Shown here: piece after piece, positions 4,766 to 27,803 of the stretch
How the letters are laid out: each line of letters starts with the position of its first letter
Position numbering within the stretch: the first letter of the stretch is position 1
NCBI GenBank assembly: GCA_029012525.1
Contig: JAQXMG010000059.1
Coordinates: 1-34,878 of the forward strand
Length of the DNA stretch: 34,878 bases
Source of the DNA: a bacterium
Lineage (GTDB): Bacteria > Bacillota_I > Bacilli_A > RF39 > UBA660
Direction: 5' to 3'
Made by a program: the position numbers and the translations under genes
The notes under the pieces: generated by a model
What the model saw: the letters and a program-made list of their open reading frames with translations, nothing else
What the model was told of the DNA's origin: nothing
Database searches by the model: none

Positions 4766-4856
4766 AATTTGTTTCCTCCCTACACTTATTATCATTTAAA
4801 GTATAAATCATTTAAATTTTGAAGTCAATAGGTAGAGAAAAAGTTTATTTTATAGC

Positions 4857-5661: not shown

Positions 5662-5703
5662 TATTTTCTCCCTTCTTACTACCACGCAAGTATATTATAA
5701 TAC

Positions 5704-8648: not shown

Positions 8649-9755
8649 TTATTCATTTATACTAAATTGTAAATCGTAATTAATATTTCCTCCTGATGCA
8701 CCATTTTCACAATCAACATCCTGTCCTTCAACCCACATATAAACTCTGATTTTTGTAATTCCTTGAGTTAAACCTCCAAATACTGCAACAGATGTATCAA
8801 AGTTTGCTTCTGTTGCATAATCAACAGTAACTGGAGCAAAATAATTACTATTAATAGCAGTCCAAGTTCCTCCTGCTGATGTACAATCACCTTCTGTTGT
8901 TTTACTTGCATCTCTTACACCACCATTTAAACAAGCCATAAATGTTGATGAAGCTTCTTTTAATAAAACATTATTATCTGTTATTATTTCTGCTTTTACT
9001 CCTTCATAATCTAGTTGTGCTGCACCTGTTGCTGTTGTTGTTATTCCGTAAACATCAGCTGCATTTGTTATACCAGTTGCTGAATGAACATCGTAATTTG
9101 GTTCCCAAATATATACTGGTGATGCAGCGCTTCCCTTTATTCCTTGAACATCTTTTAATTCAGTACCATTAGCAACGTTACCTAATACAACAAATCCAAT
9201 ACGTGAAGCATTTTTAATACCTTTGTCATCACCTTGTGCTGTTACATTTGATGTTCTTGTCATATATAAGTCTCCAGTTTTATCAACTTTCAAATATAAA
9301 TCAAATGTAATAAATTTACCGATATTACTATCTGTTGTTCTTGTTTCTGTAGTTTTTGTTGCGGTTAAAATATAATCACCATCAGTATTTGTATCAGTTA
9401 CACCATAAAACATTTCAAGCCTTCCATTCGCATCAACAACTTTCGCAGTTGAAACAGGTTCTAACGTATCTGGTAATTGATTAATACTTAATGCCTGTGT
9501 TTCAGCCAAGTAATTAGTATGAGCATTCGTAATATCAGTTGTTTGAATAATTGATTTCCAATTTGTTCCATCTGTTGATATTTGAATACCATTTTTAGCT
9601 GCTACATTTACAGTTATTTTATTAATTGTTACAGTTTCATTAGCAGTAAACCATGCATATGATGATACTCCTAAAAGTGAACCAGTAACGCACAATAATA
9701 ATAAAAGTAATAATAGTCTTCTTCTTCTGTTATTCTTTTTTTCTTTGTCTTTCAT
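8649..9755 (-). CDS. exported protein with SipW-cognate signal peptide, large TasA-superfamily-like paralog A (candidate major fibre subunit)
   Basis: The N-terminus is KKNNRRRRLLLLLLLLCVTGSLLGVSSYAWFTANE: basic, then hydrophobic, then the aromatic-A-x-F-x-(N/D) motif seen in TasA/CalY. It is a clear paralog of 21344-22354 (LEPVST, GKFI.FD, IWEPNYD.H, KIR.Y.W.EGQDVDCEN). It has its own promoter, a strong SD (AGAAGGA) and its own terminator. Confidence 0.8.
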   Translation of the reverse strand: MKDKEKKNNRRRRLLLLLLLLCVTGSLLGVSSYAWFTANETVTINKITVNVAAKNGIQISTDGTNWKSIIQTTDITNAHTNYLAETQALSINQLPDTLEPVSTAKVVDANGRLEMFYGVTDTNTDGDYILTATKTTETRTTDSNIGKFITFDLYLKVDKTGDLYMTRTSNVTAQGDDKGIKNASRIGFVVLGNVANGTELKDVQGIKGSAASPVYIWEPNYDVHSATGITNAADVYGITTTATGAAQLDYEGVKAEIITDNNVLLKEASSTFMACLNGGVRDASKTTEGDCTSAGGTWTAINSNYFAPVTVDYATEANFDTSVAVFGGLTQGITKIRVYMWVEGQDVDCENGASGGNINYDLQFSINE

Positions 9756-9797
9756 AATTTTTTTTCCTTCTTTCTATTCCGTATATATTCCTTATTA

Positions 9798-9826
9798 TCA
9801 TAAATAAATAATATCATATAATTCGA
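9798..9826 (-). promoter_or_regulatory. candidate sigmaA promoter of the 368-aa gene with an embedded consensus Spo0A box
   Basis: The minus strand reads TTGCAA (9826-9821), 17 nt, TATTAT (9803-9798). The spacer contains TGTCGAA (9818-9812), the 7-mer 0A-box consensus. Confidence 0.45.
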
Positions 9827-9858
9827 CACTTTGCAACAAATTTTTATAAATTTTTATT

Positions 9859-10419
9859 TTAAATTATTTGTTCTGAATTTATTATTATTTCAATATTTTC
9901 CATAATATCTTGATACATATAGTTAATATAAGTTGTTTGAAAATAAACTTTTAATGTATATGTATTCATTTGGTTTTGTTCTTTTATAAATTGTTTTTCA
10001 CTTGTTTCCATATTATAAAAATATGTTCCATATTCATCTTGTAATTTTTCTTCTCGTTCTATTATATTATTAGTAAAATCATCATTTAAAAACAACTCAT
10101 ATTCTAATGGCAAATTAGTTGTTGCTTTTATCATTAAATTATATTTCAAATCAACTTCTGCTACTTTTTCATTGTCATAATTTGACACAGTAAATGTCCA
10201 TACATATGCCTCTTCTCTTGGAATCATATCGTGAATTGTTAATGTATTTGTATAATAATCTTCTTTTAAAAGGTAAAATGCTATTCCAGAATTTACCGAA
10301 ATATCTGTCTTAGTTTCGTACTTAGAAAAAACAATAGGTATAAAATTTATTACTATAACAAATAATATGAAAACAATAATTAGCCTAAATGATAACTTTA
10401 ATCTTCTTTTATCTATCAT
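9859..10419 (-). CDS. small exported protein (186 aa), SipW-substrate-like
   Basis: An N-terminal membrane/signal segment is followed by FSKYETKTD. The protein is beta-rich and ends with a strand of the form IEIIINSEQ (ends in Q, as in the other small paralogs). The ATG overlaps the stop of the upstream peptidase gene (ATGA). Confidence 0.65.
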   Translation of the reverse strand: MIDKRRLKLSFRLIIVFILFVIVINFIPIVFSKYETKTDISVNSGIAFYLLKEDYYTNTLTIHDMIPREEAYVWTFTVSNYDNEKVAEVDLKYNLMIKATTNLPLEYELFLNDDFTNNIIEREEKLQDEYGTYFYNMETSEKQFIKEQNQMNTYTLKVYFQTTYINYMYQDIMENIEIIINSEQII

Positions 10420-11009
10420 AATTCTTCAATATCATCACTTTCATCTAAATATTCTATTTCTTCTTTTCTATTATTATTTATCTTATTTTTATTATCATTT
10501 TGACTTGTTTTGCTATCTTTACTTTTATATGAAAACGCAACACTAAATAATGTTAAAGTAACAAGTATTGATATTAATACTTTTGGCTCTGTTAATGTCT
10601 TTTTCCATATACCTAGTCTTGGTATTACTTTAACAACTTTACCAACAACTACACTTTTATCTATTGGATTATCTGATACGTTATTAGCGTCTCCTTTTGT
10701 CACTATTACATCTTGTTCCATTTTAACAATTCTATGTGTTATAAAATCTTTCCCAACTTTATATGTTATTATATCTTGCTCTTTTACATCTTTTGTTATT
10801 TTAACAATTATGACATCATCTATGTTTATTTGTTCTGCCATAGATCCCGTTGCTACATCAAAAAATGTATATCCAAAAAAATTAACGTATGGTTTGTTCA
10901 AAATGTTTAATACAAAAAAATTATATAATGCAAAAAAAACAATGATGGCAACGAAAAACATCAAAATATTAGTAACTATTTTTACTATTTTTTCAAATAT
11001 GTTTTTCAT
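10416..11009 (-). CDS. sipW: SipW-type (ER/archaeal-type, S26B) signal peptidase I, copy 1
   Basis: N-terminal TM, Ser motif ATGSMAE, His motif ITHRIV, TKGDANN, a C-terminal TM, and a charged tail ending DDIEEL. This is colinear with B. subtilis SipW (SGSMEP / THRI / KGDNN, recalled). SD is GGTGGTGG. Confidence 0.85.
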   Translation of the reverse strand: MKNIFEKIVKIVTNILMFFVAIIVFFALYNFFVLNILNKPYVNFFGYTFFDVATGSMAEQINIDDVIIVKITKDVKEQDIITYKVGKDFITHRIVKMEQDVIVTKGDANNVSDNPIDKSVVVGKVVKVIPRLGIWKKTLTEPKVLISILVTLTLFSVAFSYKSKDSKTSQNDNKNKINNNRKEEIEYLDESDDIEEL

Positions 11010-11040
11010 TTTACCACCACCATTTTTATCCTTTTATATC

Positions 11041-11610
11041 TTAATTCAAATATTGACTAAAGTTAATGCTCACTTTTATTTCTAATTGATTGTTGTAAAT
11101 ACTACCAAGTTCATAATCTTTAATGTTATCATCTATATCTTCCCAAATAAGCGTTGTTCTTATATTATGCTTTATCCCATTTTCAATATCATCCAATGTT
11201 ATTATTCCTATATAGGTATTATCATCATTTGTTATTAGTTCTTTATTATTTAACTCTTGTAATGATAATACATGAATTGCTTCATTATCTATATTACTAT
11301 AGTCAAAGGTTATTTCATATTTTATTGCAACATCTGACTGTTTAGGATCTATTATTATATCATAATATCCTTTTATTGATGGTGCAACTTTACCACTTGC
11401 CACATGTTCATTTTCTTCCCATATAATGTTTTGTAATTCTATATTATTTGTTTTTACTGCATCAATATCATTTACATTTATTTCCCATTTTGCTATATTT
11501 AATTCTTTTTCTATATTTCTATTTGTTTCATATAAAGCATAAGTACTTGAAATTGTATATGCCATTATTCCAAGTACTATAATTGTTAATAATATAAATA
11601 ATTTTTTCAT
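11041..11610 (-). CDS. small TasA/camelysin-superfamily-like exported protein (189 aa)
   Basis: The signal peptide ends with SSTYALYETN. Then come IAKWEINVND and APSIKGYYDIIIDPKQSDVAIKYEITF, and the last strand is LEIKVSINFSQ. It is a paralog of 23254-23847. Confidence 0.75.
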   Translation of the reverse strand: MKKLFILLTIIVLGIMAYTISSTYALYETNRNIEKELNIAKWEINVNDIDAVKTNNIELQNIIWEENEHVASGKVAPSIKGYYDIIIDPKQSDVAIKYEITFDYSNIDNEAIHVLSLQELNNKELITNDDNTYIGIITLDDIENGIKHNIRTTLIWEDIDDNIKDYELGSIYNNQLEIKVSINFSQYLN

Positions 11611-12173
11611 TATAATTCTTCTACATTTTTATTTCTTGCAGGTTTTACTTTTTCTTTTTTCTCTGTTTTTATTTCTTTGACTACTTCATATATTTCATAT
11701 ATAAATATGAACAATACAGGCATTATAACAAATAGTAAGAAGCCCCATCTTGATTCTAAAGCTTTTAATATTCCTCCAATACCATTATAAACTTTTGCAT
11801 TTTCTAATGTACCTATTACATATTCTTGAGATAATAGATAGTTTCCTTCAATTGTAAATGTTGTTTCATTTTCAATTGTTTCTGTTTGTAATACTTTTGA
11901 AAAACTAACATCTACTTGATTAGCATAAGTGTTATAAAAGAAAATATGTTCTCCACTTTCTATTTCATTTTTAACATCATGTTTTACAACTACCAAATCT
12001 CCTTTTTTAAGTCCATTTCCTAATTTGTCATCTTCAACAATTATTAATGAACTATTTTTAAATGTTGTAATATTATATTTATTATAATTAAGCAAACAAG
12101 TTGTTAAAAATATAACTGTTGCAACATAAATAAATATTAATATTCCAAATACTACTTTTAACGTTTTTTTCAT
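11610..12173 (-). CDS. SipW-like pseudo-peptidase (topology kept, catalytic residues lost)
   Basis: Same layout as the two SipW copies: N-terminal TM, beta core, C-terminal TM, and a charged tail ending NVEEL. However, EDDKLGNG replaces GSMxE, FSKVL replaces THRIV, and IEGNY replaces KGDAN. The likely start is ATG 12173 (MKKTLKV), behind GGTGGT; the track start at 12218 is a TTG with no SD. Confidence 0.6.
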   Translation of the reverse strand: MKKTLKVVFGILIFIYVATVIFLTTCLLNYNKYNITTFKNSSLIIVEDDKLGNGLKKGDLVVVKHDVKNEIESGEHIFFYNTYANQVDVSFSKVLQTETIENETTFTIEGNYLLSQEYVIGTLENAKVYNGIGGILKALESRWGFLLFVIMPVLFIFIYEIYEVVKEIKTEKKEKVKPARNKNVEEL

Positions 12174-12223
12174 TATTACCACCATAAAAATTATATCACG
12201 TATATTTTTAATATGCAATTTTT

Positions 12224-13747
12224 TTATTTAATATTTTCCCTTTCTAAATTATTTTTTTTAACATCAAGTATAAACTTTATATTGTCTATATTTAAATTAC
12301 TATTTATTATGGAGTTATAAATAATAATTTTTTCCAAATCTTTTTTTAATATTGATACATTAGATTCATCTAAAATATCACAATCAATATTTAATAATTT
12401 ATAATGTTCTTGTATTACTTTTTCAATATTATCATTTTTAAAAATACTAACATTATCTATTAAAGTATTATATGGACATAGCAGAAAATATTCTAAGTCT
12501 TTTATTGTCTTATCTTTATTTTCTAGATTTTCCTTTTCTATACTTTTTATTAAAAAATTATAATTATAACAACTCATTTTTAATATATCATATATTGAAG
12601 ATGAATCATTGATATTTATTAATATTTCTTCACAAAATTTATTATTTTCATATTCATCATATAAATTTTGTAACTCTGTTATTTTTTCATTTATTAAAAG
12701 ATTATATTCATCTTGTTTTATATCATTTTTGTTATAATATGACATAAACTTCTTATTGTATTTTTTTAATATTTTTTCTTCTTTTTTTATTTCTTTTAAT
12801 GATTTTTTAACACTTTGTTTATATTTTTCTTTATCTTTATATATTTCTTTTATATCATTTATTAAAAATAAATATTTCAAATAATTATCATACTCACATA
12901 AAGAGTTATATAAACTTACTAAATCATTATCATACTTCTTATAATCGTTATCGTCTTTTATAAATTTCTTATATAAAGACTCTATTTTATTTTGATCATA
13001 ATCTTTTATATCATATATTCCATCATAAAAATTATTAAATATTACATCTTCAGATTGTTTTAAATTATTATTTGATATTAATATTTGATTAATAGAATTT
13101 CTTATTTCTTGTTCGCTTATTTTTGATGTCATCTTATTTAAATATTTAATAAAGTATTTTTCATATTTTAAATATAAATATTTAAAGTTTAAAGAAATAT
13201 GAGCTATAACACTAGGACACTTCCAGTAAATATTTTTAAATACCTCTTTCATTTTTTCTTCATCAACATTATATAGAGAATTTACAAAAAAGTTTTTCAT
13301 ATAACTATAAGAATAATAACTATAGCAAAATTCTTTATCTGTCAAATTGATATTACATTTTCTAAAAATGTTAAGTAGATTTATAATTGTTTCATTTAAT
13401 TTTTTTAAGTTATCATTAGAATTTATATTTAATTCATATATATTTTTGTCTATGTTTAATTTTTTATATGGAGATATCATATTATCTTTTAAATTAATAT
13501 AATCTATAAAAGCATCTAATTTTTTTAAATTTTCTTCCTCATTTATATCAGTTTTTTTTATGCTAAATATTATGTTATCATATCTTTTTGTTATTTCTTC
13601 ATATAAATCAGTTTGTAAGTTTTTAGCTACTTTTAATATTCCGTTACATTTTTCTTTGTATTCATTTATATTTTTTTTATTTGTCTTTGGCATATTAGAT
13701 AATATATCATTTATAACATTTAATTTTTCCTTGTATTCATTAATCAT
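12224..13747 (-). CDS. cytoplasmic Lys/Asn/Tyr-rich helical protein of unknown function (~507 aa)
   Basis: Long uninterrupted ORF with no TM or signal peptide and no motif I recognise. The likely start is ATG 13747 (MINEYKEKL), behind GGTGAT; the track start at 13780 would overlap the upstream micro-ORF. Confidence 0.7.
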   Translation of the reverse strand: MINEYKEKLNVINDILSNMPKTNKKNINEYKEKCNGILKVAKNLQTDLYEEITKRYDNIIFSIKKTDINEEENLKKLDAFIDYINLKDNMISPYKKLNIDKNIYELNINSNDNLKKLNETIINLLNIFRKCNINLTDKEFCYSYYSYSYMKNFFVNSLYNVDEEKMKEVFKNIYWKCPSVIAHISLNFKYLYLKYEKYFIKYLNKMTSKISEQEIRNSINQILISNNNLKQSEDVIFNNFYDGIYDIKDYDQNKIESLYKKFIKDDNDYKKYDNDLVSLYNSLCEYDNYLKYLFLINDIKEIYKDKEKYKQSVKKSLKEIKKEEKILKKYNKKFMSYYNKNDIKQDEYNLLINEKITELQNLYDEYENNKFCEEILININDSSSIYDILKMSCYNYNFLIKSIEKENLENKDKTIKDLEYFLLCPYNTLIDNVSIFKNDNIEKVIQEHYKLLNIDCDILDESNVSILKKDLEKIIIYNSIINSNLNIDNIKFILDVKKNNLERENIK

Positions 13748-13871
13748 TATTATCACCACTAGATAACTTTTCCATATCACTTTCTAATTTGTTTATAAAT
13801 TCTGTTATTTCTTTATACATCTCAATTAAATCGTTATTATCTAATTCCTTTGCTTTTACATCTTCCATCAT
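13740..13871 (-). CDS. candidate 43-aa acidic micro-protein (not in the ORF track)
   Basis: ATG at 13871 lies 5 nt after GAGGT. Translation: MMEDVKAKELDNNDLIEMYKEITEFINKLESDMEKLSSGDNND. Its TAA overlaps the ATG of the next gene (ATGATTAATG arrangement). It sits 24 nt after the giant gene's stop. Confidence 0.4.
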   Translation of the reverse strand: MMEDVKAKELDNNDLIEMYKEITEFINKLESDMEKLSSGDNND

Positions 13872-13895
13872 TATTACCTCTTATATATATATATT

Positions 13896-16800
13896 TTACT
13901 TTATAAATATGTATTTGTAAACATCTCCAATATAATTATTTCCATCATATAAACTAAAGTATAATTTATATGTTCCTGTAGTTAAGTTTTCTTTAAAATG
14001 TATATAGTAATTTAAAGATGCAGGAATACTATCTGTTACTAAATATTCATATTCATTATTAGTGGAACTTAAATTATCACTAATATAATCTTTTAAATCA
14101 ACCAAATCATAATTTGTTGAATATATACTGTCATAATTTCTTCTTTTTAATGATATTCTAAGGTTTGGATTTGAAAGACCTGATGCATATTTTATATTAA
14201 AAACTGATGAAGTTGAATCATTTAAATTCTTACCTGTTGTTTTATCTATTGTTATTTGGGTTTCATCTGCTGTTACATTTAAACCATATATTGCATTTAC
14301 AATTTCAAGATTTATTTCTTTTGTATCCGATGATGTTAATCCATAATAAATTCCATCACCTGAACCAAATGACTCAATAACAATTGTATATAATCCACTT
14401 GATAAACTACTATTTGTTGTATCAAATGTAAGAATAGATTGTACATTTGATACTTTATCTGCAACACTTATTCTATAACTTCCATCCATTCTTGGACTGT
14501 ATGATATTCCATTATAAATAATAAATGTTCCCATAAGGTCATAACCATTTACTTTATTACCATTTTGATCTTTTAATGATATTTTTAATCCAAGTTTTTT
14601 TTCATAATAATTAGTATCTTGTACTACAATACCACTTGATAGTTTAGTTTGTGTAAACGATAATGTTACAGTAATATCATTTTTATGTCCTACGTACATC
14701 CTATCTTTATCAAGTTCAGCATCAACTTTTATTAAAGCATTTGTATCTTTATATAAACTATAGCCCATTACTCTTTGCTGAATACCAAGTACTCCAATTA
14801 ATACTTGATTATTTCCATCTCTTAATTCTATTAATAATGTTTCATTTAGTTTATCCTCAGTTATATTACTTTCACTAAAATCTATTATAAACACAAATTC
14901 TTCTAATGCCTTTTTTATATCTTCGTGATAATAAATATTTTGTTTTTCTGATTCATTAAAGTTATTTGTCGTGCTATTGCTACCCATTTTTATGAATTTA
15001 GAAAATTCATATGATACTTCGCTGTAGTTATTATACTCTTCTAATGATGAATCATAATCATCCTGACTTACTACATAGTAATAGTATTCTGGATTTTCCA
15101 TATCAGCATAATCTATCATTGTAATTCTTGTATTAACTGGCAATGAAAAACTTGATACTAATACATGATGATATCCATCTTTATATAAATTTCTTTCACT
15201 TTCTGCATATAGTGAATAATATGTACTTATACTTGATGTTGTTGTTACATTAGTTGCTGTTGTTGCAAATAAATCATATTTTCTACCAGCAGAAATAGCT
15301 CCTTCATATTCATTTGTTTGATATAATGCACGTTGCAGATGTACTACAATGTTTAATCTCTCAACCTTATTTTCAATAGGACTTATTGGTGTTGAAACTT
15401 GTAAAGATATTGTAACACTGCCCATATTTTTTTCTGTTTGTAAATTTTTAGAGTGATATAAATAAAATAATAAACTTGGTACAGTACTTGAGTTTTCACT
15501 ATAATAAGATGTACTACCACTATAAGGATTACTATTTGCATCATCTGTATAAAAAGTTGTTTTACCATAATTCATCCAACCAGTATTACTACTTTCCATA
15601 ACTAAACTCATTTTAGTATCTGCTTCATCTGAAATTCTTGGAATATCGTTACTATCTGTTAAAGTTACATCTTGATCTAATTCACTATAAGAGAAACCAA
15701 CAACAGTAAACACAGTGTTTGGTGTAGAAAAATTAATTAATGGTAATTCTACAGCTCCTAAAGTTGAATATTTTGATGCTATTAGATCAATCTCATATGA
15801 TGCAACAACTTCTCCGACTACCCACATATAATAGTTTGCATCATCAGGTGTTGGATTTATATATTTTTGGATAATTGTTCCTTGATTATCTTCATTTTCA
15901 TAATTTGTATAAAAACCATTTACTGTTATATCATGATTTGTTTCATGGAGTCCTAGTACATAACTACCATCTGAAAAATAGTAAATGTCATTTGATGATA
16001 CACTATCCAAAGAATTATATTGACTATCATACATAGCAGTTTCTATATTACCATTTCGATCATGATTATAAAGTCCAAAAAATGTCATACCAGAAACTTT
16101 TCCATAAGCAGATACACTTTCATTTTCTGCAATGTTTATATTTTTACCTTCCCATATATATATTCTATTATCAACATTTTTTGTAACATTTCCATTATCA
16201 TCTATTACAACTTGTGATAAATTTTCTTCTCCGTCTATATCCACTAAAGACGAAAATTTTTGAAGCATATTTGTTCCATTTACAAGATAAATGTTTGTAT
16301 TATTTTTTATTTTTAAATGTCCTATTCTTGATAAACTAAATAACACATTTGAATATTCATTTGTTCTATCTGTTGCACCATTAAGTTCTATATAAGAATT
16401 ACTTATTGTTACTATATCAGATCTTTGAATTGAGATATTTTTCATTGGATTTTCTTTTGTTCCATAGTTACTGATATTAATATAGCTATATCCACCAGAT
16501 GATGATGCATTACCTGAGCCAAAAATAGAACCTTTTATTTCATACTTGTCATGTCCTTCTGCATTTAAATTCATATTGATTCCTGTTGTTACACTTATGA
16601 AACTAAAATCGTATTCAGTACTTCCTGATGCATTTGCTTCACCACCACCAAATACTGTTCCATCTATTATGATATTACCTTTTTCTAGATTTTCTACTGA
16701 TGATGTTACATAACCTATATTAAGATTTGTTATACCATATACTTTGGCAGTATTAGCTCCACCATAGACATTGCCTCCTACTTCACTTCCTGTTATATTT

Positions 16801-19800
16801 ACTGTTACAACAGAATTATTATTTTCTTCAGTACCAGTATTAGCAGCATTACCACCACCGAATATGTGATTTGAAACTTTTGTTGTTCCGGTAACATTTA
16901 ATACTGAATTGCCACTTACTATAGCACTTTGTCCATTGCCACCACCATAAATACTACCATATACGTTTGAATTTGATACTGTAACATCGGTATTTCTATT
17001 AACACCAGCTTCATTTCCTCCACCAAATATATCCTTGCTTATATTAGATGATGTGATATTTAATTTTGTTTCTCCAACTTGAGCTTTGTTACCACCACCA
17101 TAGATAGTATCAATAGTACTATCTGTAATTACTAAATCTGTTTTGTTAACATTTCCTCCTAAGTTGTTACCACCATATATAGTTCCAATAGTAGATGTAC
17201 TTTGTACATTTATATTTGTTTGTTCAACAGTTCCACTACTATTTGAACCACCATATAAATTGTTTATTTTACTATTTTCAACATTGATTTGTGTTGTTGT
17301 AACATCAGCTTTGTTACCACCACCAAAAACGTTTTCTATTTCATTAGTTATATCTTTTATTAAAATATCACTTTCAGTTGCTACAGCCTCATTACCACCA
17401 CCATAGATAGTATTTATAGTTCCATCTGTTACATCAATATCAGATTTTGTAACAATTCCTCCCAAATTATTACCACCATAGATAGTATTTACAACACCAC
17501 CGGTTATATTTATATCTGTTAAAGGTACATTACCTAGAGTATTTGAACCACCATAGATATTACCACAGTTTCCTGATGTTAAATTTATATTTGTTTTTGT
17601 AGTTATATTAGCTTCTTCACCACCACCAAATACATTTGTTATTGTAGCTCCTTGAATATTTACATTTGTTTCGTTTGTTACTGCTTTTTTACCGCCACCA
17701 TAAATTGTTGCTGCAGTTCCTGTTATAGCATTAATATTGGATGTTTCAAGACTTCCACCAAGATTATTTCCACCATATATAGTTTCAACATTACTGCCTT
17801 GTAGATTTATATTACTTTGTCTAACATTTCCACTACTATTTGAACCACCAAATACTATTTGAGGATTATCTCCATTAAGTTCTATATTTGTTTCATTTAA
17901 AACATCAGCTGCATTACCACCGCCATAGATAGTATCTACTGATGAACCATTTATATAAACGTTAGTAGTTGTTGTTGTAGCGATATTTCCTCCTCCATAA
18001 ATTGTTTCTATATCACCATTATTTAGAATAACATTACTTACATTTGTTGTTCCTCCCAAATTATTACCACCATAGACATTGTTTGCTGTTCCACTTTCTA
18101 TTAAGACATTGGTTTCCAAAACATCTCCAAGTTTATTTGAACCGCCAAAAAGATTTTCTGTTATGTTAGAACCATCAAGTTTTACATTTGTTTCATTAGC
18201 TCCAGCTTCATTTGAACCACCATAAACATTATTTGCTGTTCCTCCATAAAGATTAACATGTGTTGTTAAAACTCCAGTTTTGTTTCCTCCTCCATATATA
18301 TTAGTACAAACTCCATCGTTTAAATTAACAGTTACTATACCATTTGGTGTGCCTGATGTATCATTTCCACCATAAACATTTGTGATTATACCATTATTTA
18401 TATCGACATCTACATTACCACAAACATATGGTATTATATCGCTACTTCCTTCTCCACCACCAAATACATTTGTTATATTTCCATTATTTACTACTACTTT
18501 TGTATTGTAACTAGATACACTTGTAGTTTGAGATGTTCCATTAACACTACCATATGCACTTCCACCATATACACTATTTATAGTAGGTCCAGATGTTTCG
18601 GTTCCTATTGTTACATTTACATCTTCAGTTACAAATGTTCCAATATTATTTTGATTTAAATAACCACCTTTACCACCACCATATACTGAGCCTCTTACTT
18701 CTCCTCCAAGTATATTAACATTTGTCTTGCCATATACAGTTCCAAGTTCATTACTTCCACCATAAATAGAGTTATTAATAATTCCATCTGTCATAGTAAT
18801 AGTTACATTAGCTTTGGTTGTAGAATTACCTGCGCCATTATTGTTTCCACCACCATATACTGAATCATCTATTTGACCACCATTTATCTTTATTATAGTT
18901 GTTGTTGAGTTTTGTGATGATACAACTCCTGTTGCACCATAATTTCCACCACCATATACTGAGCCTCTAATATGACACATATCATTAATTATAATATATG
19001 AATTATCATTTGATCCTATTGTTGATGAACCTTGTTTTCCATTTCCAATACCAAATACACTTCCAGATTCTGCTCCATATAATTTATTTTGATTATTTAC
19101 AAGAGTTTCATCTCCTATTTCTGCTACTCCTCCGATATAAATATAGCTACTACCATTAAGTTTACCATCACCTTCACTTGCTTCATAACCATTTGATCCG
19201 CCAAATACAGAATATAAAACTTTTCCTCCAGTTATTTGAACAATTCTATTACCATATGTTGCCGTTTGTCCTGCTCCTGATGTTATCATTGATACTTCTC
19301 CACCTGTCATATATATATACGTATCATTGTAATTACTTCTTGAACTACTTGTTAAGGGTCCTCCGATTAAGTTGTAAATGCTTCCACCTTCTACAACTAT
19401 TTTTCTTGCTGCATAGTGTGTTCCACCCATTCTTCCACCAACATATATACCGGCTGTATAATCAGTTTTACCTTGTCCATATATACCACTTTTAACTGTT
19501 AATGAAAAAAGTATTCCTTCATCGCTATCTGAATAATAGTTATCATTCCATGCTCCACAAGCACAATAATATAAAATCAAATTATTGTTATTATCTGTTA
19601 CTCTATCATAATCATTTCCATAAATCGCTTCTGCCTTTATATATATATTTTGATGGCTTGAATTTTGATTACTAGTATTTGTTATAGACATAGTTTGGTA
19701 ATATCCACTTTCAATAATAAATCTATATTTTGTCAAAGAAGTTCTACTTCCAACATTACTTGTTGTATTATTTCCACCTAATATAGATCTAAATGTAGCA

Positions 19801-21314
19801 TAGTTACTTTGTTTTTCTATTCCTCTTCCTATTTTTACATTTTGATAGTTACCATAAAAATATCCAGTTGCTGTAGTACTAGATGATGGTGAATTATTTA
19901 AAGTATAATTTTGTCCTGATGATATTGTTATATATTCAATTCTTGTTGCATTATAGCATTTTACATATGTTCTTGAAATATTCCAAGTCGGATTATAATT
20001 TGTACCATTATCTATTCCTCTTAATGTAAATGGTTTATCATGGCTACCCCAAGAATCACTTCTACTTTGTGTCATAACTAAAATATTAGTATCTCTTGTT
20101 ACAAGATAATAATAATCATCATCTATATTTAGTTTATTTTCAATTCCATTTGCATCATAATAGTTTATAAGTTCATAAACACTACATGTACTATAATTAC
20201 AGTTACCACTTAATTTATTACCATCTTCATCATAATAGTCTGACATATCACTTTGATTTGTAATTTCTTTTAACCTGTAAAATCCTGACATATTAGAATT
20301 TTTATCAAATGAATTGTAGTATGTTTCGTTAACACTTGTAGGTTCTAAAGTGGATGGTATATCAACAATTTGCATTCTATTATTTTGCAATTCGTAGTAA
20401 TCTTTTTCCTCATCATAAATATCGCTTTCTACTTCTTCATAATAAGTACAACCGCCCCAAGTTCTACATCTACAGTTTCTGTTAGTAAGACTTCCATTTG
20501 CATTATACATGTTAGCACAACTGCTACCATTTGCTACTAAAACGCTATTATAATAATTGCCTACCAAATCATATCTATATTCAATTTCATAAGCTTTAAT
20601 TTCTTTCATTCCCGCATTATCTAAAGTATTTATTGCAGTACTCCATGCTGTTGAACCAAGTAACACTTTATTAGCACTTACATAACTGGCATTAAATGTA
20701 ATTGTTATATCATTTGGAAGTCCATTACTATTGTACGTCACAGGTATTTTTGCGTATCTTACATAATATGTATTATCAAAGCTTAGTTCAACGTTTTCAT
20801 AATTTGTTATCCATCCATTAAAAGCTAAATCGTTTGGAATATCTGCAAAAGGATTATCTATTAATTCCAATAAAACGTAATCATCAAGCTTTGATTCTGT
20901 TTCATTATCTAATACATTTAATATTTTGTAATATATATACTTACTTTGTCTTTCGTTTAATCCAACATAACTTTTTTCATTATATATTAAGTCTTGACTA
21001 TCATAAGTAATATTTAATCTAACTAAATTTTTATTACTATATATTTTTTTATCTTCAGTTGTAGGGAGCGTGCCATCATTATCTGTATAATTTAAACCAG
21101 TATAATAATACCAATCTCTCATATCATCATTAACATATACAGTATCTCCAGATACCCCACTATTTATACTATTGGGATTTGTTACATAATCTCCATATGT
21201 TTTAAAGAAAGTAGTAACTAGAATAATTAATAAAGAAAATACTGGAAGTGTAAAAATTATTTTAAGTTTAATATTTGGACTTAATTTTTTTATTTTTTTT
21301 ATTAACTTTTTCAT
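13896..21314 (-). CDS. giant exported surface protein (2472 aa): SipW-type signal anchor, Cys-containing N-terminal region, ~30-coil beta-helix-like repeat region, ~850-aa beta-rich C-terminal region
   Basis: Single uninterrupted ORF with SD AGGTAGGTGA. The N-terminus is KIIFTLPVFSLLIILVTTFFKTYGDYVTN. The central repeats are (V/I)(Y/F)GG(G/S/N)N. There is no LPXTG and no choline-binding or S-layer motif at the C-terminus. Confidence 0.9.
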   Translation of the reverse strand: MKKLIKKIKKLSPNIKLKIIFTLPVFSLLIILVTTFFKTYGDYVTNPNSINSGVSGDTVYVNDDMRDWYYYTGLNYTDNDGTLPTTEDKKIYSNKNLVRLNITYDSQDLIYNEKSYVGLNERQSKYIYYKILNVLDNETESKLDDYVLLELIDNPFADIPNDLAFNGWITNYENVELSFDNTYYVRYAKIPVTYNSNGLPNDITITFNASYVSANKVLLGSTAWSTAINTLDNAGMKEIKAYEIEYRYDLVGNYYNSVLVANGSSCANMYNANGSLTNRNCRCRTWGGCTYYEEVESDIYDEEKDYYELQNNRMQIVDIPSTLEPTSVNETYYNSFDKNSNMSGFYRLKEITNQSDMSDYYDEDGNKLSGNCNYSTCSVYELINYYDANGIENKLNIDDDYYYLVTRDTNILVMTQSRSDSWGSHDKPFTLRGIDNGTNYNPTWNISRTYVKCYNATRIEYITISSGQNYTLNNSPSSSTTATGYFYGNYQNVKIGRGIEKQSNYATFRSILGGNNTTSNVGSRTSLTKYRFIIESGYYQTMSITNTSNQNSSHQNIYIKAEAIYGNDYDRVTDNNNNLILYYCACGAWNDNYYSDSDEGILFSLTVKSGIYGQGKTDYTAGIYVGGRMGGTHYAARKIVVEGGSIYNLIGGPLTSSSRSNYNDTYIYMTGGEVSMITSGAGQTATYGNRIVQITGGKVLYSVFGGSNGYEASEGDGKLNGSSYIYIGGVAEIGDETLVNNQNKLYGAESGSVFGIGNGKQGSSTIGSNDNSYIIINDMCHIRGSVYGGGNYGATGVVSSQNSTTTIIKINGGQIDDSVYGGGNNNGAGNSTTKANVTITMTDGIINNSIYGGSNELGTVYGKTNVNILGGEVRGSVYGGGKGGYLNQNNIGTFVTEDVNVTIGTETSGPTINSVYGGSAYGSVNGTSQTTSVSSYNTKVVVNNGNITNVFGGGEGSSDIIPYVCGNVDVDINNGIITNVYGGNDTSGTPNGIVTVNLNDGVCTNIYGGGNKTGVLTTHVNLYGGTANNVYGGSNEAGANETNVKLDGSNITENLFGGSNKLGDVLETNVLIESGTANNVYGGNNLGGTTNVSNVILNNGDIETIYGGGNIATTTTTNVYINGSSVDTIYGGGNAADVLNETNIELNGDNPQIVFGGSNSSGNVRQSNINLQGSNVETIYGGNNLGGSLETSNINAITGTAATIYGGGKKAVTNETNVNIQGATITNVFGGGEEANITTKTNINLTSGNCGNIYGGSNTLGNVPLTDINITGGVVNTIYGGNNLGGIVTKSDIDVTDGTINTIYGGGNEAVATESDILIKDITNEIENVFGGGNKADVTTTQINVENSKINNLYGGSNSSGTVEQTNINVQSTSTIGTIYGGNNLGGNVNKTDLVITDSTIDTIYGGGNKAQVGETKLNITSSNISKDIFGGGNEAGVNRNTDVTVSNSNVYGSIYGGGNGQSAIVSGNSVLNVTGTTKVSNHIFGGGNAANTGTEENNNSVVTVNITGSEVGGNVYGGANTAKVYGITNLNIGYVTSSVENLEKGNIIIDGTVFGGGEANASGSTEYDFSFISVTTGINMNLNAEGHDKYEIKGSIFGSGNASSSGGYSYINISNYGTKENPMKNISIQRSDIVTISNSYIELNGATDRTNEYSNVLFSLSRIGHLKIKNNTNIYLVNGTNMLQKFSSLVDIDGEENLSQVVIDDNGNVTKNVDNRIYIWEGKNINIAENESVSAYGKVSGMTFFGLYNHDRNGNIETAMYDSQYNSLDSVSSNDIYYFSDGSYVLGLHETNHDITVNGFYTNYENEDNQGTIIQKYINPTPDDANYYMWVVGEVVASYEIDLIASKYSTLGAVELPLINFSTPNTVFTVVGFSYSELDQDVTLTDSNDIPRISDEADTKMSLVMESSNTGWMNYGKTTFYTDDANSNPYSGSTSYYSENSSTVPSLLFYLYHSKNLQTEKNMGSVTISLQVSTPISPIENKVERLNIVVHLQRALYQTNEYEGAISAGRKYDLFATTATNVTTTSSISTYYSLYAESERNLYKDGYHHVLVSSFSLPVNTRITMIDYADMENPEYYYYVVSQDDYDSSLEEYNNYSEVSYEFSKFIKMGSNSTTNNFNESEKQNIYYHEDIKKALEEFVFIIDFSESNITEDKLNETLLIELRDGNNQVLIGVLGIQQRVMGYSLYKDTNALIKVDAELDKDRMYVGHKNDITVTLSFTQTKLSSGIVVQDTNYYEKKLGLKISLKDQNGNKVNGYDLMGTFIIYNGISYSPRMDGSYRISVADKVSNVQSILTFDTTNSSLSSGLYTIVIESFGSGDGIYYGLTSSDTKEINLEIVNAIYGLNVTADETQITIDKTTGKNLNDSTSSVFNIKYASGLSNPNLRISLKRRNYDSIYSTNYDLVDLKDYISDNLSSTNNEYEYLVTDSIPASLNYYIHFKENLTTGTYKLYFSLYDGNNYIGDVYKYIFIK
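16500..19450 (-). repeat. in-frame coding tandem repeats (~75-nt units, ~300-nt four-unit super-repeat) inside the giant gene
   Basis: About 31 occurrences of [YF]GG[GSNA]x spaced ~25 aa apart. Units cycle as FGGG(N/E)xA / YGGSNxxG / YGGNNLGG / YGGGNxA between ~17000 and 17860. An identical 20-mer, ACCACCACCATAGATAGTAT, occurs at 17091-17110 and 17394-17413 (303-nt offset). Confidence 0.85.
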
Positions 21315-21343
21315 AGTTCACCTACCTTTTCTTATTTTTTTTA

Positions 21344-22354
21344 TTATGCCGGATTTGTTGATAATTTTAATGTTAATTTAGCATCTCCAACTGATGCTTC
21401 ATTTTCACAATCAACATCTTGTCCTTCTATCCAGATATATATTCTTATTTTACTTACCCCACTTGGTAAATCAAATATTTTTTCATAGCTATCTCTATTT
21501 GTTTTAGTTGCATAATCTATATCTACTTTTTTAAATTTTGTACTATTTTTTTCTTCCGTTGCTTCGCTTAATGAAATATTATCTTCTCTTGTTATTTCAT
21601 CCGTTACGCCATCATAATTTATTTTTGCTCCATTCTCTTTAGTAGTTACAATACCATATGTATTAAGAGCATTAAAAACTCCTCCATCAGTATGAGTATC
21701 ATAATTTGGTTCCCAAATATATGGCTTTGTTGCGTTTTTTAATGCTTGAGATATTAAATAGTTTGTTTCTTTAGGTACATTTCCTTCATTTAAAAAAGCA
21801 ATTCTAAAAGCATTTTCAATACCGACTGTTTTTTCACCATTAAAAGTAACTCCAGAATCTGTTGTCAGATATAAATTTTGAGGAGATGATGTTCTTAAAA
21901 ATATATCAAACACAATAAATTTACCACTGCTTAAAACACCATATCCAAATTCTTCAATGCTTCTTGTTGTTGTTAATAAAAAATTTCCATTTATATCATC
22001 ATTTGTTGCAATTCCATGATACAATTTTAAGAAACCATTTTCATCGATAAATCCTCCTGTTGATACAGGTTCTAAATAAAGAGGTATTTGATTTGTACTT
22101 GTTTGATAAGTTGTATCTTTAACTTCAATAAGTTCACTTGTTGTAATAGATGCTTTCCAGTTTAGTGCATCTGCTGATATATCTATTCCTCCAACTGTTG
22201 CAACCTTTATATCAAGAGAATCAATTGTAACCATTCTATTCGCAGAAAACCAAGCATATGATGATGCTGAAAAAAGTAATAATGTTCCAAGCATCAATAA
22301 TAATAGTAAAAATAATCTGTTTTTTTCCTTCTTTTCTTCTTTATATTCTTTCAT
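21344..22354 (-). CDS. exported protein with SipW-cognate signal peptide, large TasA-superfamily-like paralog B
   Basis: 336 aa. The N-terminus is KNRLFLLLLLMLGTLLLFSASSYAWFSANR. It is colinear with 8649-9755 throughout. SD AGAGGTAA lies 9 nt after the upstream stop. Confidence 0.8.
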   Translation of the reverse strand: MKEYKEEKKEKNRLFLLLLLMLGTLLLFSASSYAWFSANRMVTIDSLDIKVATVGGIDISADALNWKASITTSELIEVKDTTYQTSTNQIPLYLEPVSTGGFIDENGFLKLYHGIATNDDINGNFLLTTTRSIEEFGYGVLSSGKFIVFDIFLRTSSPQNLYLTTDSGVTFNGEKTVGIENAFRIAFLNEGNVPKETNYLISQALKNATKPYIWEPNYDTHTDGGVFNALNTYGIVTTKENGAKINYDGVTDEITREDNISLSEATEEKNSTKFKKVDIDYATKTNRDSYEKIFDLPSGVSKIRIYIWIEGQDVDCENEASVGDAKLTLKLSTNPA

Positions 22355-22363
22355 AATTACCTC

Positions 22364-23062
22364 TTAATCAACAAAATGTTCATCCCTTATTTTAATATGC
22401 AATTTTATTTCTCCACCTAAAATATCATCAAGGCAATCAGGATCATCACCTTCAAGCCATATAACAATCGTATACTTATCAACTTCATTTGGATTAAATA
22501 ATCTTCTTTGTCTAACAAATGCTTTATCTTTGCTATAAAAAGGAATTGTATTTTCTTCTGGTAGACCTGTTATATTATTTATTTTAGCATAAATTGTTTT
22601 TTCACCATTTTCATAAACCATTACCCTTAATGCTTCATCAACATTTTTTATAACATCATCTATATAAAGTTCAGTCCAATAATCTACTACATCTTCTCCC
22701 ACATTTTCAACATAGTAAGTATATGCTATATAATTGTTTCCATTATGACTGCCGTCTTTTTCATTATCAATATTACTTGGTATCCAATCAACTGATATAT
22801 TATCCAAAAAATCTATTTTACCTGCACTTAATTTAACTTGTGGTTCTTTATATCTTATATCTTCATATAATACTAAATTTTGTTTTAAAGTTGTATTCTT
22901 ATCCAAACTTATTGTAAAACGTCCTCCATTATATGTTACTTCTAATATAAAATAAAGAATAATTAGAAAAATTAGTAAAAATAACAAAATCCATTTAGCT
23001 TTTTGATAAAACTTTTTTCTCGTTTTAATTCTATTTGCTTTTACTAATACTTCTTTAGCCAT
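22364..23062 (-). CDS. membrane-anchored/exported protein, shorter relative of the large paralogs (~232 aa)
   Basis: The TM segment WILLFLLIFLIILYFILEV is followed by TYNGGRF. The C-terminal YTIVIWLEGDDPDCLDDILGGEIKLHIKI matches the W.EG.D.DC motif of 8649-9755 and 21344-22354. The likely start is ATG 23062 (MAKEVLV), behind TAGGAGAG. Confidence 0.7.
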   Translation of the reverse strand: MAKEVLVKANRIKTRKKFYQKAKWILLFLLIFLIILYFILEVTYNGGRFTISLDKNTTLKQNLVLYEDIRYKEPQVKLSAGKIDFLDNISVDWIPSNIDNEKDGSHNGNNYIAYTYYVENVGEDVVDYWTELYIDDVIKNVDEALRVMVYENGEKTIYAKINNITGLPEENTIPFYSKDKAFVRQRRLFNPNEVDKYTIVIWLEGDDPDCLDDILGGEIKLHIKIRDEHFVD

Positions 23063-23253
23063 ATATGCTCTCCTATCATTATATATTATAAATATAATAA
23101 TACCATAAAATATGACAAAAAACAACATTTATAAAAGTCTTTGTATTTACATATTTTTTGTAAATAAAATGTCATAAATTTACATAATAATTGTCTTATT
23201 GTTTACATTAATTGTATAATAATAATGTAAGAATATATAAGGAGGGATAAATA
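23063..23253. promoter_or_regulatory. divergent promoter region with four ATTTACA repeats
   Basis: Plus-strand promoter: TTGTCT (23191-23196), 18 nt, TATAAT (23215-23220), then SD AAGGAGGG and ATG 23254. Minus-strand candidate: TTGTTT, 17 nt, TGGTATTAT. ATTTACA occurs at 23145-23151, inverted at 23159-23165, at 23178-23184, and as GTTTACA at 23201-23207. Confidence 0.5.
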
Positions 23254-23847
23254 ATGATTAAAATTAAAAAATTTAGATTATTAATCGCATTTATTTCTCT
23301 TTTAATGTGTTTAACATTTATACAAGACACTTATGCCAAATATGTTAACAATGTAAATGGTGAAGCCAATCTTACAATTGCAAGATGGAAAATACTTGTT
23401 AATAATGAAGATATTACAACTGGTTCTTTAGCACAAGAAGTTATAACTCCAGTTTTTAGTGGTACTGATTATATAAAAAGTGATGTTATAGCTCCTACAT
23501 CAACTGGTTATTTTGATATTATTATAGATGCCAAAGATACTGATGTTTCATTTAACTATACTATAACTGTAAACACTTCTTCAGAAAGTAGTGTAACAGA
23601 TCTTGTTACAACAGGTTATTCTATAAATGATGGTGAAGTTATTAATTTTGAAAATTATAATGAAAATATAACGGGTACTATAGATTATAATACAATAGAT
23701 ATTACAACAATTAGAGTATATGTAATGTGGAATGATAGTGATTCTAATAATATGGATAATAATGCAGATACAATTGCTGCAACAACTGAAGAAAGTAAAG
23801 CTTTGTTAAATGTATCACTTTCATTTATTCAAAATAAAGGAGAATAA
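23254..23847 (+). CDS. small TasA/camelysin-superfamily-like exported protein (197 aa); the only plus-strand gene
   Basis: Strong SD. The signal peptide ends with QDTYAKYVNN. Then come IARWKILVNN and APTSTGYFDIIIDAKDTDVSFNYTITV, and the last strand is LLNVSLSFIQ. It is a paralog of 11041-11610. Confidence 0.8.
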   Translation: MIKIKKFRLLIAFISLLMCLTFIQDTYAKYVNNVNGEANLTIARWKILVNNEDITTGSLAQEVITPVFSGTDYIKSDVIAPTSTGYFDIIIDAKDTDVSFNYTITVNTSSESSVTDLVTTGYSINDGEVINFENYNENITGTIDYNTIDITTIRVYVMWNDSDSNNMDNNADTIAATTEESKALLNVSLSFIQNKGE

Positions 23848-23860
23848 TATGGTATAAAAA

Positions 23861-23893
23861 TAAAAATACGAAAATTGAAATTCGTATTTTTTT
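23861..23893. terminator. bidirectional Rho-independent terminator between convergent genes
   Basis: 10-bp stem AAAATACGAA (23863-23872) / TTCGTATTTT (23881-23890) with an 8-nt loop. T-runs follow on both strands. Confidence 0.6.
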
Positions 23894-23912
23894 ATTATCT
23901 TATTTTATTTTA

Positions 23913-24518
23913 TTATTCTTCAACTTGTACAGCAGTTATTTTAACAACTAAGCTTATACTTGGAACACTTGGATTACTTTTTTTAAAAAGATATGCTTTA
24001 TTACCCCAATATGTATCTTCATCATCATCACCACTTTCATAAGGCCATGTAACTGATAAAGAAAATTCTCCCGTTCCACCATGTGATTCCATTAATTGAT
24101 TATCCGTATTAAAAACAACTTTAAATGGATAGTCATTAGCTAATTTGTTTGATAATTCTTCACTTGTAAGAAGAGGTCCTGTTTGATATATATCTCCTAA
24201 AATAGAAGCACTAATTATTTCATATGAAAAATTTGCTCTTGTCTCACTATTATTTGTGGCAGTTATTTTTTGAAGATAGTCAGTCATACCAGGATATAAT
24301 TCTGTTATATCAAAATTTATTTCTTGTGAAAGCTCTGTACTTCCAACTGTAAATGATACATTCCAAGCTTTTACATGAGCTGTTATATTTGAATCAACCT
24401 TTGTTGTGTAAACAAACCACGCAAAAACATTTGTTGACAAAAGAAAGAATAAAAGTAGTATAGTTGATAATTTAGTTTTTTTGAATACTCTTTTTATTAT
24501 TTCTAATACATCTTTCAT
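23913..24518 (-). CDS. small TasA-superfamily-like exported protein (201 aa)
   Basis: The signal peptide ends with TNVFAWFVYTT. Then come VKAWNVSFTVG and LYPGMTDYLQKITATNNSE (compare TasA LKPGDKLTKDFQFENNGS, recalled). The last strand is LVVKITAVQ. The ATG overlaps the sipW copy-3 stop (TAATG). Confidence 0.75.
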   Translation of the reverse strand: MKDVLEIIKRVFKKTKLSTILLLFFLLSTNVFAWFVYTTKVDSNITAHVKAWNVSFTVGSTELSQEINFDITELYPGMTDYLQKITATNNSETRANFSYEIISASILGDIYQTGPLLTSEELSNKLANDYPFKVVFNTDNQLMESHGGTGEFSLSVTWPYESGDDDEDTYWGNKAYLFKKSNPSVPSISLVVKITAVQVEE

Positions 24519-27793: not shown

Positions 27794-27803
27794 GTTATAC
27801 CTC

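Follow-up and report, generated by a model that had tools for sequence, protein, structure and literature searches.

A stretch of 34,878 nucleotides from a bacterium of the RF39 lineage (contig JAQXMG010000059.1 of assembly GCA_029012525.1; this whole stretch is called the window below) raises the question of what is built by a long run of genes, many of whose products carry the same short motif directly behind an N-terminal hydrophobic segment. A preliminary description of this DNA placed the run at 8649 to 24518 and regarded it as a multisubunit fiber system of the TasA type, with nine proteins bearing a SipW-cognate signal motif. We found that synteny in 78 related loci extends the unit to 8649 to 29729, i.e., 16 genes over ~21 kb, and that the span first given was too short. 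It is very probable that these 16 genes constitute one SipW-dependent export system of the CoCoPALM type. With less assurance, we favor on balance the reading that this single chromosomal system exports, processes, and most likely polymerizes a multisubunit surface fiber, the assembly of which would be coupled to a GTPase; the filament itself and the role of the GTPase are what we infer from the sequence.

Extent of the system and its signal motif

The products are named here by a letter and a length in amino acids (aa), from A368 to P316, and coordinates refer to the minus strand unless stated otherwise. The unit fills the space between tsf (ending at 29829) and frr (starting at 8548), with 15 of its 16 genes on the minus strand; neighboring genes lie very close together or overlap at their start and stop codons. 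The window DNA has a GC content of 24% and translates cleanly under code 11. Searches of the window proteins against the open reading frames (ORFs) of 78 loci fetched from related genomes revealed two modules. Module 1 has the order G2472-F518-E202-D189-C197-B186-A368, and module 2 has the order (E202-like)-P316-O323-N514-M369-L207-K201-J197-I254-H336, with J197 on the opposite strand. Both modules contain a peptidase and a pseudo-peptidase of their own, together with one large and two small subunits. The adjacencies are found in 29 to 53 loci, some 35 loci have the modules side by side, whichever of them comes first, and the gene order is conserved in dozens of species. Given this conserved two-module order, the genes upstream of the span first proposed (P316, O323, N514, and M369) belong to the same system.

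All nine motif strings listed in the preliminary description are present in the translated ORFs, although the ninth (TTFGRYIYD, in P316, the first gene of module 2; 28779 to 29729) falls outside the span then given and the motif is strict in only eight of the nine proteins. The pattern [STV][YF][AGS].[YFW] occurs once in each of these eight, at residues 23 to 39 and directly behind the hydrophobic segment, namely, in A368 (SYAWF; 8649 to 9755), H336 (SYAWF; 21344 to 22354), K201 (VFAWF within NVFAWF; 23913 to 24518), D189 (TYALY; 11041 to 11610), J197 (TYAKY; 23254 to 23847, plus strand), B186 (VFSKY; 9859 to 10419), G2472 (TYGDY; 13896 to 21314), and P316 (TFGRY), whereas I254 (22364 to 23062) has only the variant Y-X-G-G-[RK]-F. 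Across a background set of 10,439 residues from 28 selected window ORFs (the 16 of the system and 12 flanking ones), the strict pattern has 12 matches, four of them elsewhere, versus 3.4 expected from composition. The motif is kept among orthologs, with 9 to 76 loci per family: its A, W, F, and N are invariant in the 76 sequences of the A368 family; the D189, J197, K201, B186, and P316 families read T/S-Y/F-G/A-L-F-E, T-Y-A-K-Y, F-A-W-F, T/V-F/Y-S-K/R-F/Y, and T/S-Y/F-G-R-Y, respectively; and T-[YF]-[GSA] is kept in three complete orthologs of G2472.

The nine proteins have in common a basic n region, a hydrophobic helix, the triplet (S/T/V)-(Y/F)-(A/G/S), and then X-(Y/F/W). Six TasA-family proteins from Bacillus plasmids read GGGTYA/YFSD (the slash marks the -1/+1 junction), and Bacillus TasA and the window proteins share a small residue at -3, an aromatic residue at -2, a tiny residue at -1, and an aromatic residue at +2. 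Pfam and NCBIfam scans of all 16 proteins plus 54, 49, 27, 24, and 24 family members returned TIGR04088, TIGR02228, and DUF2357 as the only informative families. The first of these bears out the SipW-cognate signal, with A368 scoring 23.4 bits on TIGR04088 (cutoff, 19) and matches in 40 of 49 family members. The D189 small-subunit family has no TIGR04088 match, yet it keeps the -3/-2/-1/+2 pattern. The models exp_by_SipW_III and exp_by_SipW_IV (TIGR04089 and TIGR04090), which had been invoked as describing this class, match none of the window proteins or family members scanned. The broader portrayal of a multisubunit secreted system far more complex than tapA-sipW-tasA, devoid of sortase and type IV pilin features, held up: the scans detected no sortase among the 16 genes, and no system protein has an LPXTG motif or a C-terminal anchor. 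A type IV pilin reading was rejected because the conserved motif follows the hydrophobic helix instead of preceding it.

Subunit families and their relationship to TasA

The large exported subunit A368 is the candidate major structural protein. Its family includes more than 2,110 homologs that lack a Pfam domain, and its AlphaFold2 model (pLDDT [predicted local distance difference test], 88.6; predicted template modeling score, 0.84) retrieved no structural neighbor in Foldseek searches of PDB and BFVD. The three larger proteins had been thought to form a family of their own. A368 and H336 are indeed paralogs (39% identity; E = 2e-72), whereas I254, which starts at its second Met and is 232 aa long, in agreement with the length given earlier, joins them only via the C-terminal W.EG(Q/D)D.DC block (E = 3e-5; W.EGDD.DC in I254 itself). 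In A368, C349 of this block is invariant inside the invariant loop W-X-E-G-Q-D-X-D-C-E-N. Residues ~262 to 300 of the same protein constitute a lineage-specific, nonconserved insertion with two cysteines (ACLNGG...GDCTSAGG).

The four proteins of ~190 aa had been described as paralogs with a common W.(I/V).VN stretch and an AP..GY(Y/F)DIIID block. Only D189 and J197 (32% identity; E = 7e-18; hhalign probability, 99.8%) show these features clearly, whereas K201 and B186 are related to them only at the profile level (hhalign, 93 to 94%), the former to D189 at 93.9% over 168 columns and the latter to J197 at 94.3% and to D189 at 92.8%. All four end in Q, as had been noted, and J197 lies on the opposite strand in 14 of 15 loci. 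The D189 family comprises 795 proteins that likewise lack a Pfam domain, and the AlphaFold2 model of D189 (pLDDT, 73.5) consists of a helix at the N terminus, a linker that is disordered across the motif, and a β-sandwich. The small subunits form one superfamily of β-sandwiches. Large and small subunits are alike over their N-terminal ~70 residues (hhalign, 78 to 83%), and conservation is among the highest in the motif region with the mature N terminus and in the acidic loop of the C terminus. In the A368 and D189 models, the N-terminal strands have pLDDT values below that of the core. Identity across species is about 50% for A368 and about 30% for D189.

Membership in the TasA/camelysin family, the core of the earlier proposal, is not supported. 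Searches for Peptidase_M73 (PF12389) retrieved no match in ten window proteins at E ≤ 0.1 or in 54 D189-family members at E ≤ 1, and a shallow TasA profile of 7 sequences (Bacillus subtilis TasA and six plasmid-borne Bacillus homologs) gave hhalign probabilities of 0.1 to 5.5% against eight family profiles. Foldseek searches with D189 found no PDB match at E ≤ 1e-3. The marginal matches include FimG, cohesins, sortase pilins, the cannula protein CanA, Hyper2 tubes, and the TasA fiber, and FimG, CanA, and the TasA fiber are strand-exchange pilins. CanA, Hyper2, and TasA fibers rank among the best of these marginal matches (template modeling [TM] scores, 0.36 to 0.46); the TasA fiber 8aur (E = 0.023; TM scores, 0.29/0.24) is one of many equally marginal β-sandwich matches. 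A parallel with the TasA topology, in which a W-containing penultimate strand is followed by an acidic loop and by a final strand with Q at its end, is below significance and serves as a lead only. Sequence searches of PDB with profiles of the A368, D189, M369, and O323 families retrieved no match.

The giant exported protein G2472, a candidate adhesin, has ~31 repeats of ~25 aa ([IV][YF]GG[GSN]N) at residues 700 to 1580, the pattern of which suggests a β-solenoid-like structure, and has neither a Pfam match nor a PDB sequence match. Two further components are conserved cytoplasmic proteins with no predicted transmembrane segment. One is O323 (27804 to 28775), which is syntenic in 33 loci, adjoins the exported P316 in 32 of 34 loci, and has no Pfam or PDB relative; an EAL-like identity, prompted by the string GYKIALIIDDDF, received no support in Pfam and PDB searches and was rejected. 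The other is the Lys/Asn/Glu-rich F518 (12224 to 13780), which directly follows G2472 in 41 loci and for which we detected no Pfam or NCBIfam family match and no relatives of known function. In the region of its gene (12001 to 14000), the GC content falls to 17%.

Signal peptidases and a membrane-anchored McrB-like GTPase

Interleaved among the substrate genes are two dedicated SipW-type signal peptidases, C197 (10416 to 11009) and L207 (24518 to 25141), as expected from the earlier proposal. They score 60.2 and 78.8 bits, respectively, on TIGR02228, the model of the endoplasmic reticulum (ER)/archaeal-type signal peptidase I (cutoff, 51.85), and are partial matches to the Bacillus SipW equivalog. 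Their catalytic residues are intact: C197 keeps the GSM, THR, and GDANN motifs, and L207 keeps the Ser of GSM and the His of AHQ. A third homolog, E202 (11610 to 12218), is clearly related to L207 (hhalign, 98.7%) and retains both transmembrane segments, and it falls below the TIGR02228 cutoff. In the alignment, EDD replaces GSM and FSK replaces THR, with the consequent loss of both Ser and His, and E202 is predicted to be a catalytically dead pseudo-enzyme. It is present in 64 loci, often in two copies. C197, E202, and L207 all end in an acidic cytoplasmic tail finishing in ...EEL; this tail was considered as a docking motif and rejected, as only close relatives preserve exactly these residues.

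The start of L207 overlaps the stop of M369 (25138 to 26247), and the two genes are adjacent in 29 loci; the GTPase gene described below and M369 are translationally coupled to this peptidase. M369 is a McrC-like protein that contains DUF2357, the N-terminal domain of McrC (E = 1.6e-9). This domain is present in all 24 family members scanned, and none of the 24 has a nuclease domain. Its partner is N514 (26270 to 27814), a membrane-anchored McrB-like GTPase, the family profile of which matches the AAA+ domain of Escherichia coli McrB in PDB searches (6hz4; E = 5.7e-4) in an alignment that covers Walker A, Walker B, and the McrB-specific helix. N514 has the Walker A motif GISGTGKT, the Walker B motif LDEMN, and the signature N-N-D-D, with GTINNDDS aligning with GTANHDET and GTVNTDES of CnuB-like proteins versus LMNTADRS of E. 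coli McrB; in this alignment, the signature takes the shortened NxD(+D/E) form. Among annotated proteins, the nearest relatives of N514, at 39% identity (E = 2e-50), are CoCoNuT-like (CnuB-like): "AAA family ATPases" of 800 aa that contain long coiled coils, are encoded on Polaromonas and Lactiplantibacillus plasmids, and are followed by large hypothetical or DUF2357 proteins.

The N-terminal part of N514 has a predicted transmembrane segment (residues 69 to 87), followed by a basic stretch and a helical, heptad-like region. The family shows weak matches to FtsL and FtsL_2 (7 and 5 of 24 members, in sets that may overlap, with best E values of 0.05 and 0.025) and to ATP synthase subunit b. A HMMER scan recovered 754 cluster representatives of N514 at E ≤ 1e-30, and ~30 of the top 150 share its ~500-aa build. 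More distant relatives include proteins with a large extracellular N-terminal domain or several transmembrane segments (P0250, P0253, and P0282). No other protein of the system is as conserved as N514, which keeps 72 to 76% identity across species. A canonical McrBC restriction enzyme was rejected for want of a PD-(D/E)XK nuclease and in view of the membrane anchor that forms the N-terminal domain of N514. A separate McrBC restriction island was likewise rejected because of the synteny with the system genes and the missing nuclease.

These observations bear on the simplest alternative, a passive matrix fiber resembling that of TasA that self-assembles with no energy input, in which the McrB- and McrC-like genes would be unrelated neighbors or a regulator only. 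In favor of such a fiber, the TasA-type cleavage motif and the SipW-type peptidases are present, module 1 (from G2472 through A368) includes a peptidase but lacks a GTPase gene, and TasA, AbpA, and the cannulae polymerize without a nucleoside triphosphatase (NTPase) (PMC9674648 and PMC9245690). However, N514 and M369 are placed within a fixed order extending from P316/O323 to L207/K201 in ~30 loci, and start codons overlap preceding stop codons; the GTPase is the most conserved component, and TasA membership failed every sequence test. We regard the passive fiber as improbable and prefer a fiber with GTPase-coupled assembly.

Control, genomic setting, and comparison with known systems

A368 had been credited with its own promoter, strong ribosome-binding site, and terminator. 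The intrinsic terminator, which closes the cluster (8645 to 8625), is real, with a 9-bp stem containing 4 GC pairs and a T8 tail, and no other minus-strand intrinsic terminator was found between 8400 and 30000. The ribosome-binding site is good. As to the promoter, a consensus scan is at the background level (52 sites versus 59.8 expected) and is uninformative in DNA of 24% GC, whereas phylogenetic footprinting favors it. The promoter-like element upstream of A368 (9808 to 9836) reads TTGCAA, 17 nucleotides, and TG-TATTAT, and its spacer contains a perfect TGTCGAA (9822 to 9828). This heptamer is the Spo0A-box consensus established for Bacillus. It occurs within 200 nucleotides upstream of the A368 ortholog in 27 of 75 loci, versus 0 to 2 loci for each of the other 15 families and a background of 0.073 per kb, and it lies either in the spacer or 5 to 12 nucleotides upstream of a conserved TTGCAA -35 element in surroundings that have otherwise diverged. 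This footprint supports a predicted promoter specific to A368.

The combination of promoter, ribosome-binding site, and terminator suggests that A368 is abundant, as would also be expected of a surface layer or envelope coat in which A368 and H336 form a two-dimensional array or sheath anchored by the small proteins. The absence of a pilin-like neighbor of the A368 fold and of cell wall anchoring signals would accord with such a coat, but a Pfam scan found no SLH or CWB2 domains, and a heteropolymeric appendage accounts better for nine distinct subunits with a common N-terminal module. This alternative seems to us just as improbable as the passive fiber.

The box also bears on a spore-associated structure, i.e., an appendage, coat, or exosporium component that would be processed in the same way but at another site and time. 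The gene for Spo0A itself (4891 to 5685; 288.6 bits on TIGR02875, cutoff of 200) is encoded ~3 kb from the system, and the plasmid-borne TasA homologs are annotated as spore coat associated. TasA/CotN was first described in the context of sporulation. Yet Spo0A also controls biofilm matrix genes, as established for Bacillus, and the box could bind another regulator. We consider a spore structure somewhat less probable than either of the preceding alternatives. This spo0A gene belongs to a gut bacterium with a reduced genome of 24% GC.

A genome scan identified the A368 family in 344 species representatives. The carriers are uncultured low-GC metagenome-assembled genomes from gut and rumen labeled Bacilli, Tenericutes, Mycoplasma sp., Erysipelotrichaceae, and Clostridium sp. 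CAG:609/914/628/567, which we take to be lineages of the RF39/RFN20 type; other labels, such as Muribaculaceae, are taken as binning or labeling errors. In the window, the system is flanked on one side by sigA, gpmI, an unidentified gene, spo0A, tpiA, pgk, and frr and on the other side by tsf, rpsB, rplT, and infC. A mobile element or prophage was rejected, as housekeeping genes flank the system and neither an integrase nor a tRNA is present. Here, the 21-kb system, located between tsf and frr, breaks the usual rpsB-tsf-pyrH-frr arrangement. A search that was not exhaustive did not identify pyrH among the 12 flanking and 16 system ORFs scanned. Four other loci have rpsB-tsf immediately downstream of module 1. 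The ribosomal protein S2 encoded by rpsB (30725 to 31696) has a C-terminal extension holding a Rho_N domain (PF07498; E = 4.9e-12), and L20 (31793 to 32251) is likewise extended, to 152 aa; both match exception models of NCBIfam ("sunset domain variant") with scores well under the curated cutoffs (298 versus 710 bits and 135 versus 375 bits). The unidentified gene between gpmI and spo0A (3494 to 4795) encodes 433 aa with no NCBIfam match, and a 191-aa ORF antisense to C197 and D189 (10510 to 11085, plus strand) is most likely spurious, a hydrophobic mirror of the coding strand.

Least probable of all is a defense or conflict system in which the GTPase senses phage at the envelope and the secreted proteins act as decoys, receptor masks, or effectors; the McrBC ancestry with closest relatives in CoCoNuT-like systems, the match of the GTPase domain to the PADLOC phage defense candidate PDC-M26A (E = 2e-32), and the contrast of fast-evolving exported proteins (30 to 50% identity) with a conserved GTPase (72 to 76%) speak for it, but no nuclease or other effector domain is present, no other protein matches PADLOC convincingly, and the system is chromosomal, sits beside housekeeping genes with no marks of mobility, and is kept in more than 300 species representatives.

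Under the preferred reading, that of a surface fiber with GTPase-coupled assembly, Sec would insert the precursors into the membrane as N-in signal anchors, and C197 and L207 would cut them after the small -1 residue, each serving the substrates of its own module. E202 might hold the same motif uncut and serve as a chaperone or a platform for assembly, much like SipA in the case of Streptococcus pyogenes pili. The freed conserved N-terminal strands could then insert into neighboring subunits next to the conserved acidic W-X-E/D...D loop, in a strand donation comparable to that of TasA, AbpA, and the cannulae. The shaft would consist of H336 and of A368, which has a terminator and a Spo0A-box promoter of its own, with the four ~190-aa proteins as minor or adaptor subunits and G2472 as the adhesin. 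The similar roles proposed in the preliminary description (major subunit, minor subunits, and tip adhesin) are plausible inferences. On the cytoplasmic side, a ring of N514, with M369 as its stimulator and its transmembrane segment and helical linker as a tether, may gate or drive how precursors are presented to the peptidases.

Polymerization via the N terminus and GTP-dependent gating or powering are the weakest steps of this mechanism, and several facts weigh against the reading as a whole. The subunits have no sequence-detectable homology to TasA or to any solved pilin, and their fold matches are marginal (D189) or absent (A368). No filament, cleavage, or polymerization has yet been observed for any member. 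The GTPase is cytoplasmic, assembly would be extracellular, and no mechanism coupling the two is known. Its GTPase domain resembles a candidate phage defense protein, and O323 and F518 are unexplained by the model. A bolder proposal, which we consider tentative and rather doubtful, is that the locus represents a new class of energy-coupled filament machine in monoderm bacteria, in which a membrane-tethered, McrBC-derived GTPase ring with a McrC-like stimulator would work through SipW-type peptidases and a dead peptidase to extract, cleave, and polymerize nine signal-anchored subunits into an adhesin-tipped heteropolymer under Spo0A control. In function, such a machine would parallel the assembly ATPases of type IV pili, with no evolutionary relationship to any known pilus motor.

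If the preferred model is correct, widespread uncultured bacteria of the human and animal gut would build their main surface appendage by a pathway that has no characterized example and that combines the release of subunits by signal peptidases with a GTPase whose origin is a restriction system. The fiber and the 2,472-aa repeat protein would be candidate adhesion and colonization factors of organisms known only from metagenomes. With a confident but neighborless model and more than 2,000 members lacking a Pfam domain, the A368 family is a good target for structure determination.

Among known systems, tapA-sipW-tasA of B. subtilis and sipW-tasA-calY with CapP/BC1280 of Bacillus cereus share with the present one a SipW-type peptidase beside exported substrates, the cleavage pattern T-(W/Y)-A then X-F, independence from sortase, and a β-rich subunit with a conserved mature N terminus. 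They differ in having two or three substrates versus nine here and one peptidase versus three homologs here, whereas the window adds a GTPase/McrC pair and two cytoplasmic proteins, lacks Peptidase_M73 homology, and encodes in A368 a fold that is unmatched. The GTPase/McrC pair, the dead peptidase, and two further conserved genes upstream of the first span, all of them missed in the preliminary description, change the kind of system from the one modeled there. The sipW-bsaA-bsaB-bsaC operon of Clostridium perfringens resembles it in combining SipW with several TasA-like subunits, as several subunits are present here, and its efficient secretion requires NTPase-driven type IV pilus components (PMC11580942); here, the candidate motor is instead McrB derived and encoded in the cluster, and no VWA protein was detected. 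For E202, there is a precedent in SipA/LepA of S. pyogenes, a signal peptidase-like protein that has no activity and is essential for pilus polymerization (PMC4049620). Both lack the catalytic residues, but SipA is of the bacterial (P) type and works with sortases and LPXTG pilins, neither of which is found here, whereas E202 is of the ER/archaeal (SipW) type. Sortase-dependent Gram-positive pili differ likewise in their LPXTG-like C termini and sortases.

The strand donation filaments of AbpA and CanA also consist of β-sandwich subunits processed by signal peptidase I, and the acidic loops of the present system could bind calcium, as in the cannulae. AbpA was linked to Peptidase_M73 by HHpred at 97%, whereas no such link was obtained here with the shallow 7-sequence TasA profile. 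McrBC and CoCoNuT systems share the GTPase core and the DUF2357 partner, but here a membrane anchor replaces the DNA-binding or long coiled-coil N-terminal domain, no nuclease or HEPN partner is present, and the context is secretory and not defensive. The closest counterpart is the CoCoPALM clade, which Bell et al. (eLife 2024) named in one paragraph and deferred to a later paper that we did not find in the literature; it comprises NxD McrB-like GTPases fused to an FtsB-like transmembrane/coiled-coil domain (PMC11090510). Defining features of that clade that are present in the window are an NxD McrB-like GTPase, a DUF2357 McrC homolog, and adjoining genes of the signal peptidase family; the N-terminal transmembrane segment and heptad-like region of N514, with their weak FtsL matches, may correspond to the FtsB-like fusion. 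The published description lists no substrates, whereas CoCoPALM would gain from this locus nine substrates with one motif, a division of labor between live and dead peptidases, and a regulator in Spo0A. What is new relative to that description is the set of nine exported one-motif proteins, the layout in two modules, a catalytically dead peptidase, a giant protein with repeats, and a promoter containing a Spo0A box.

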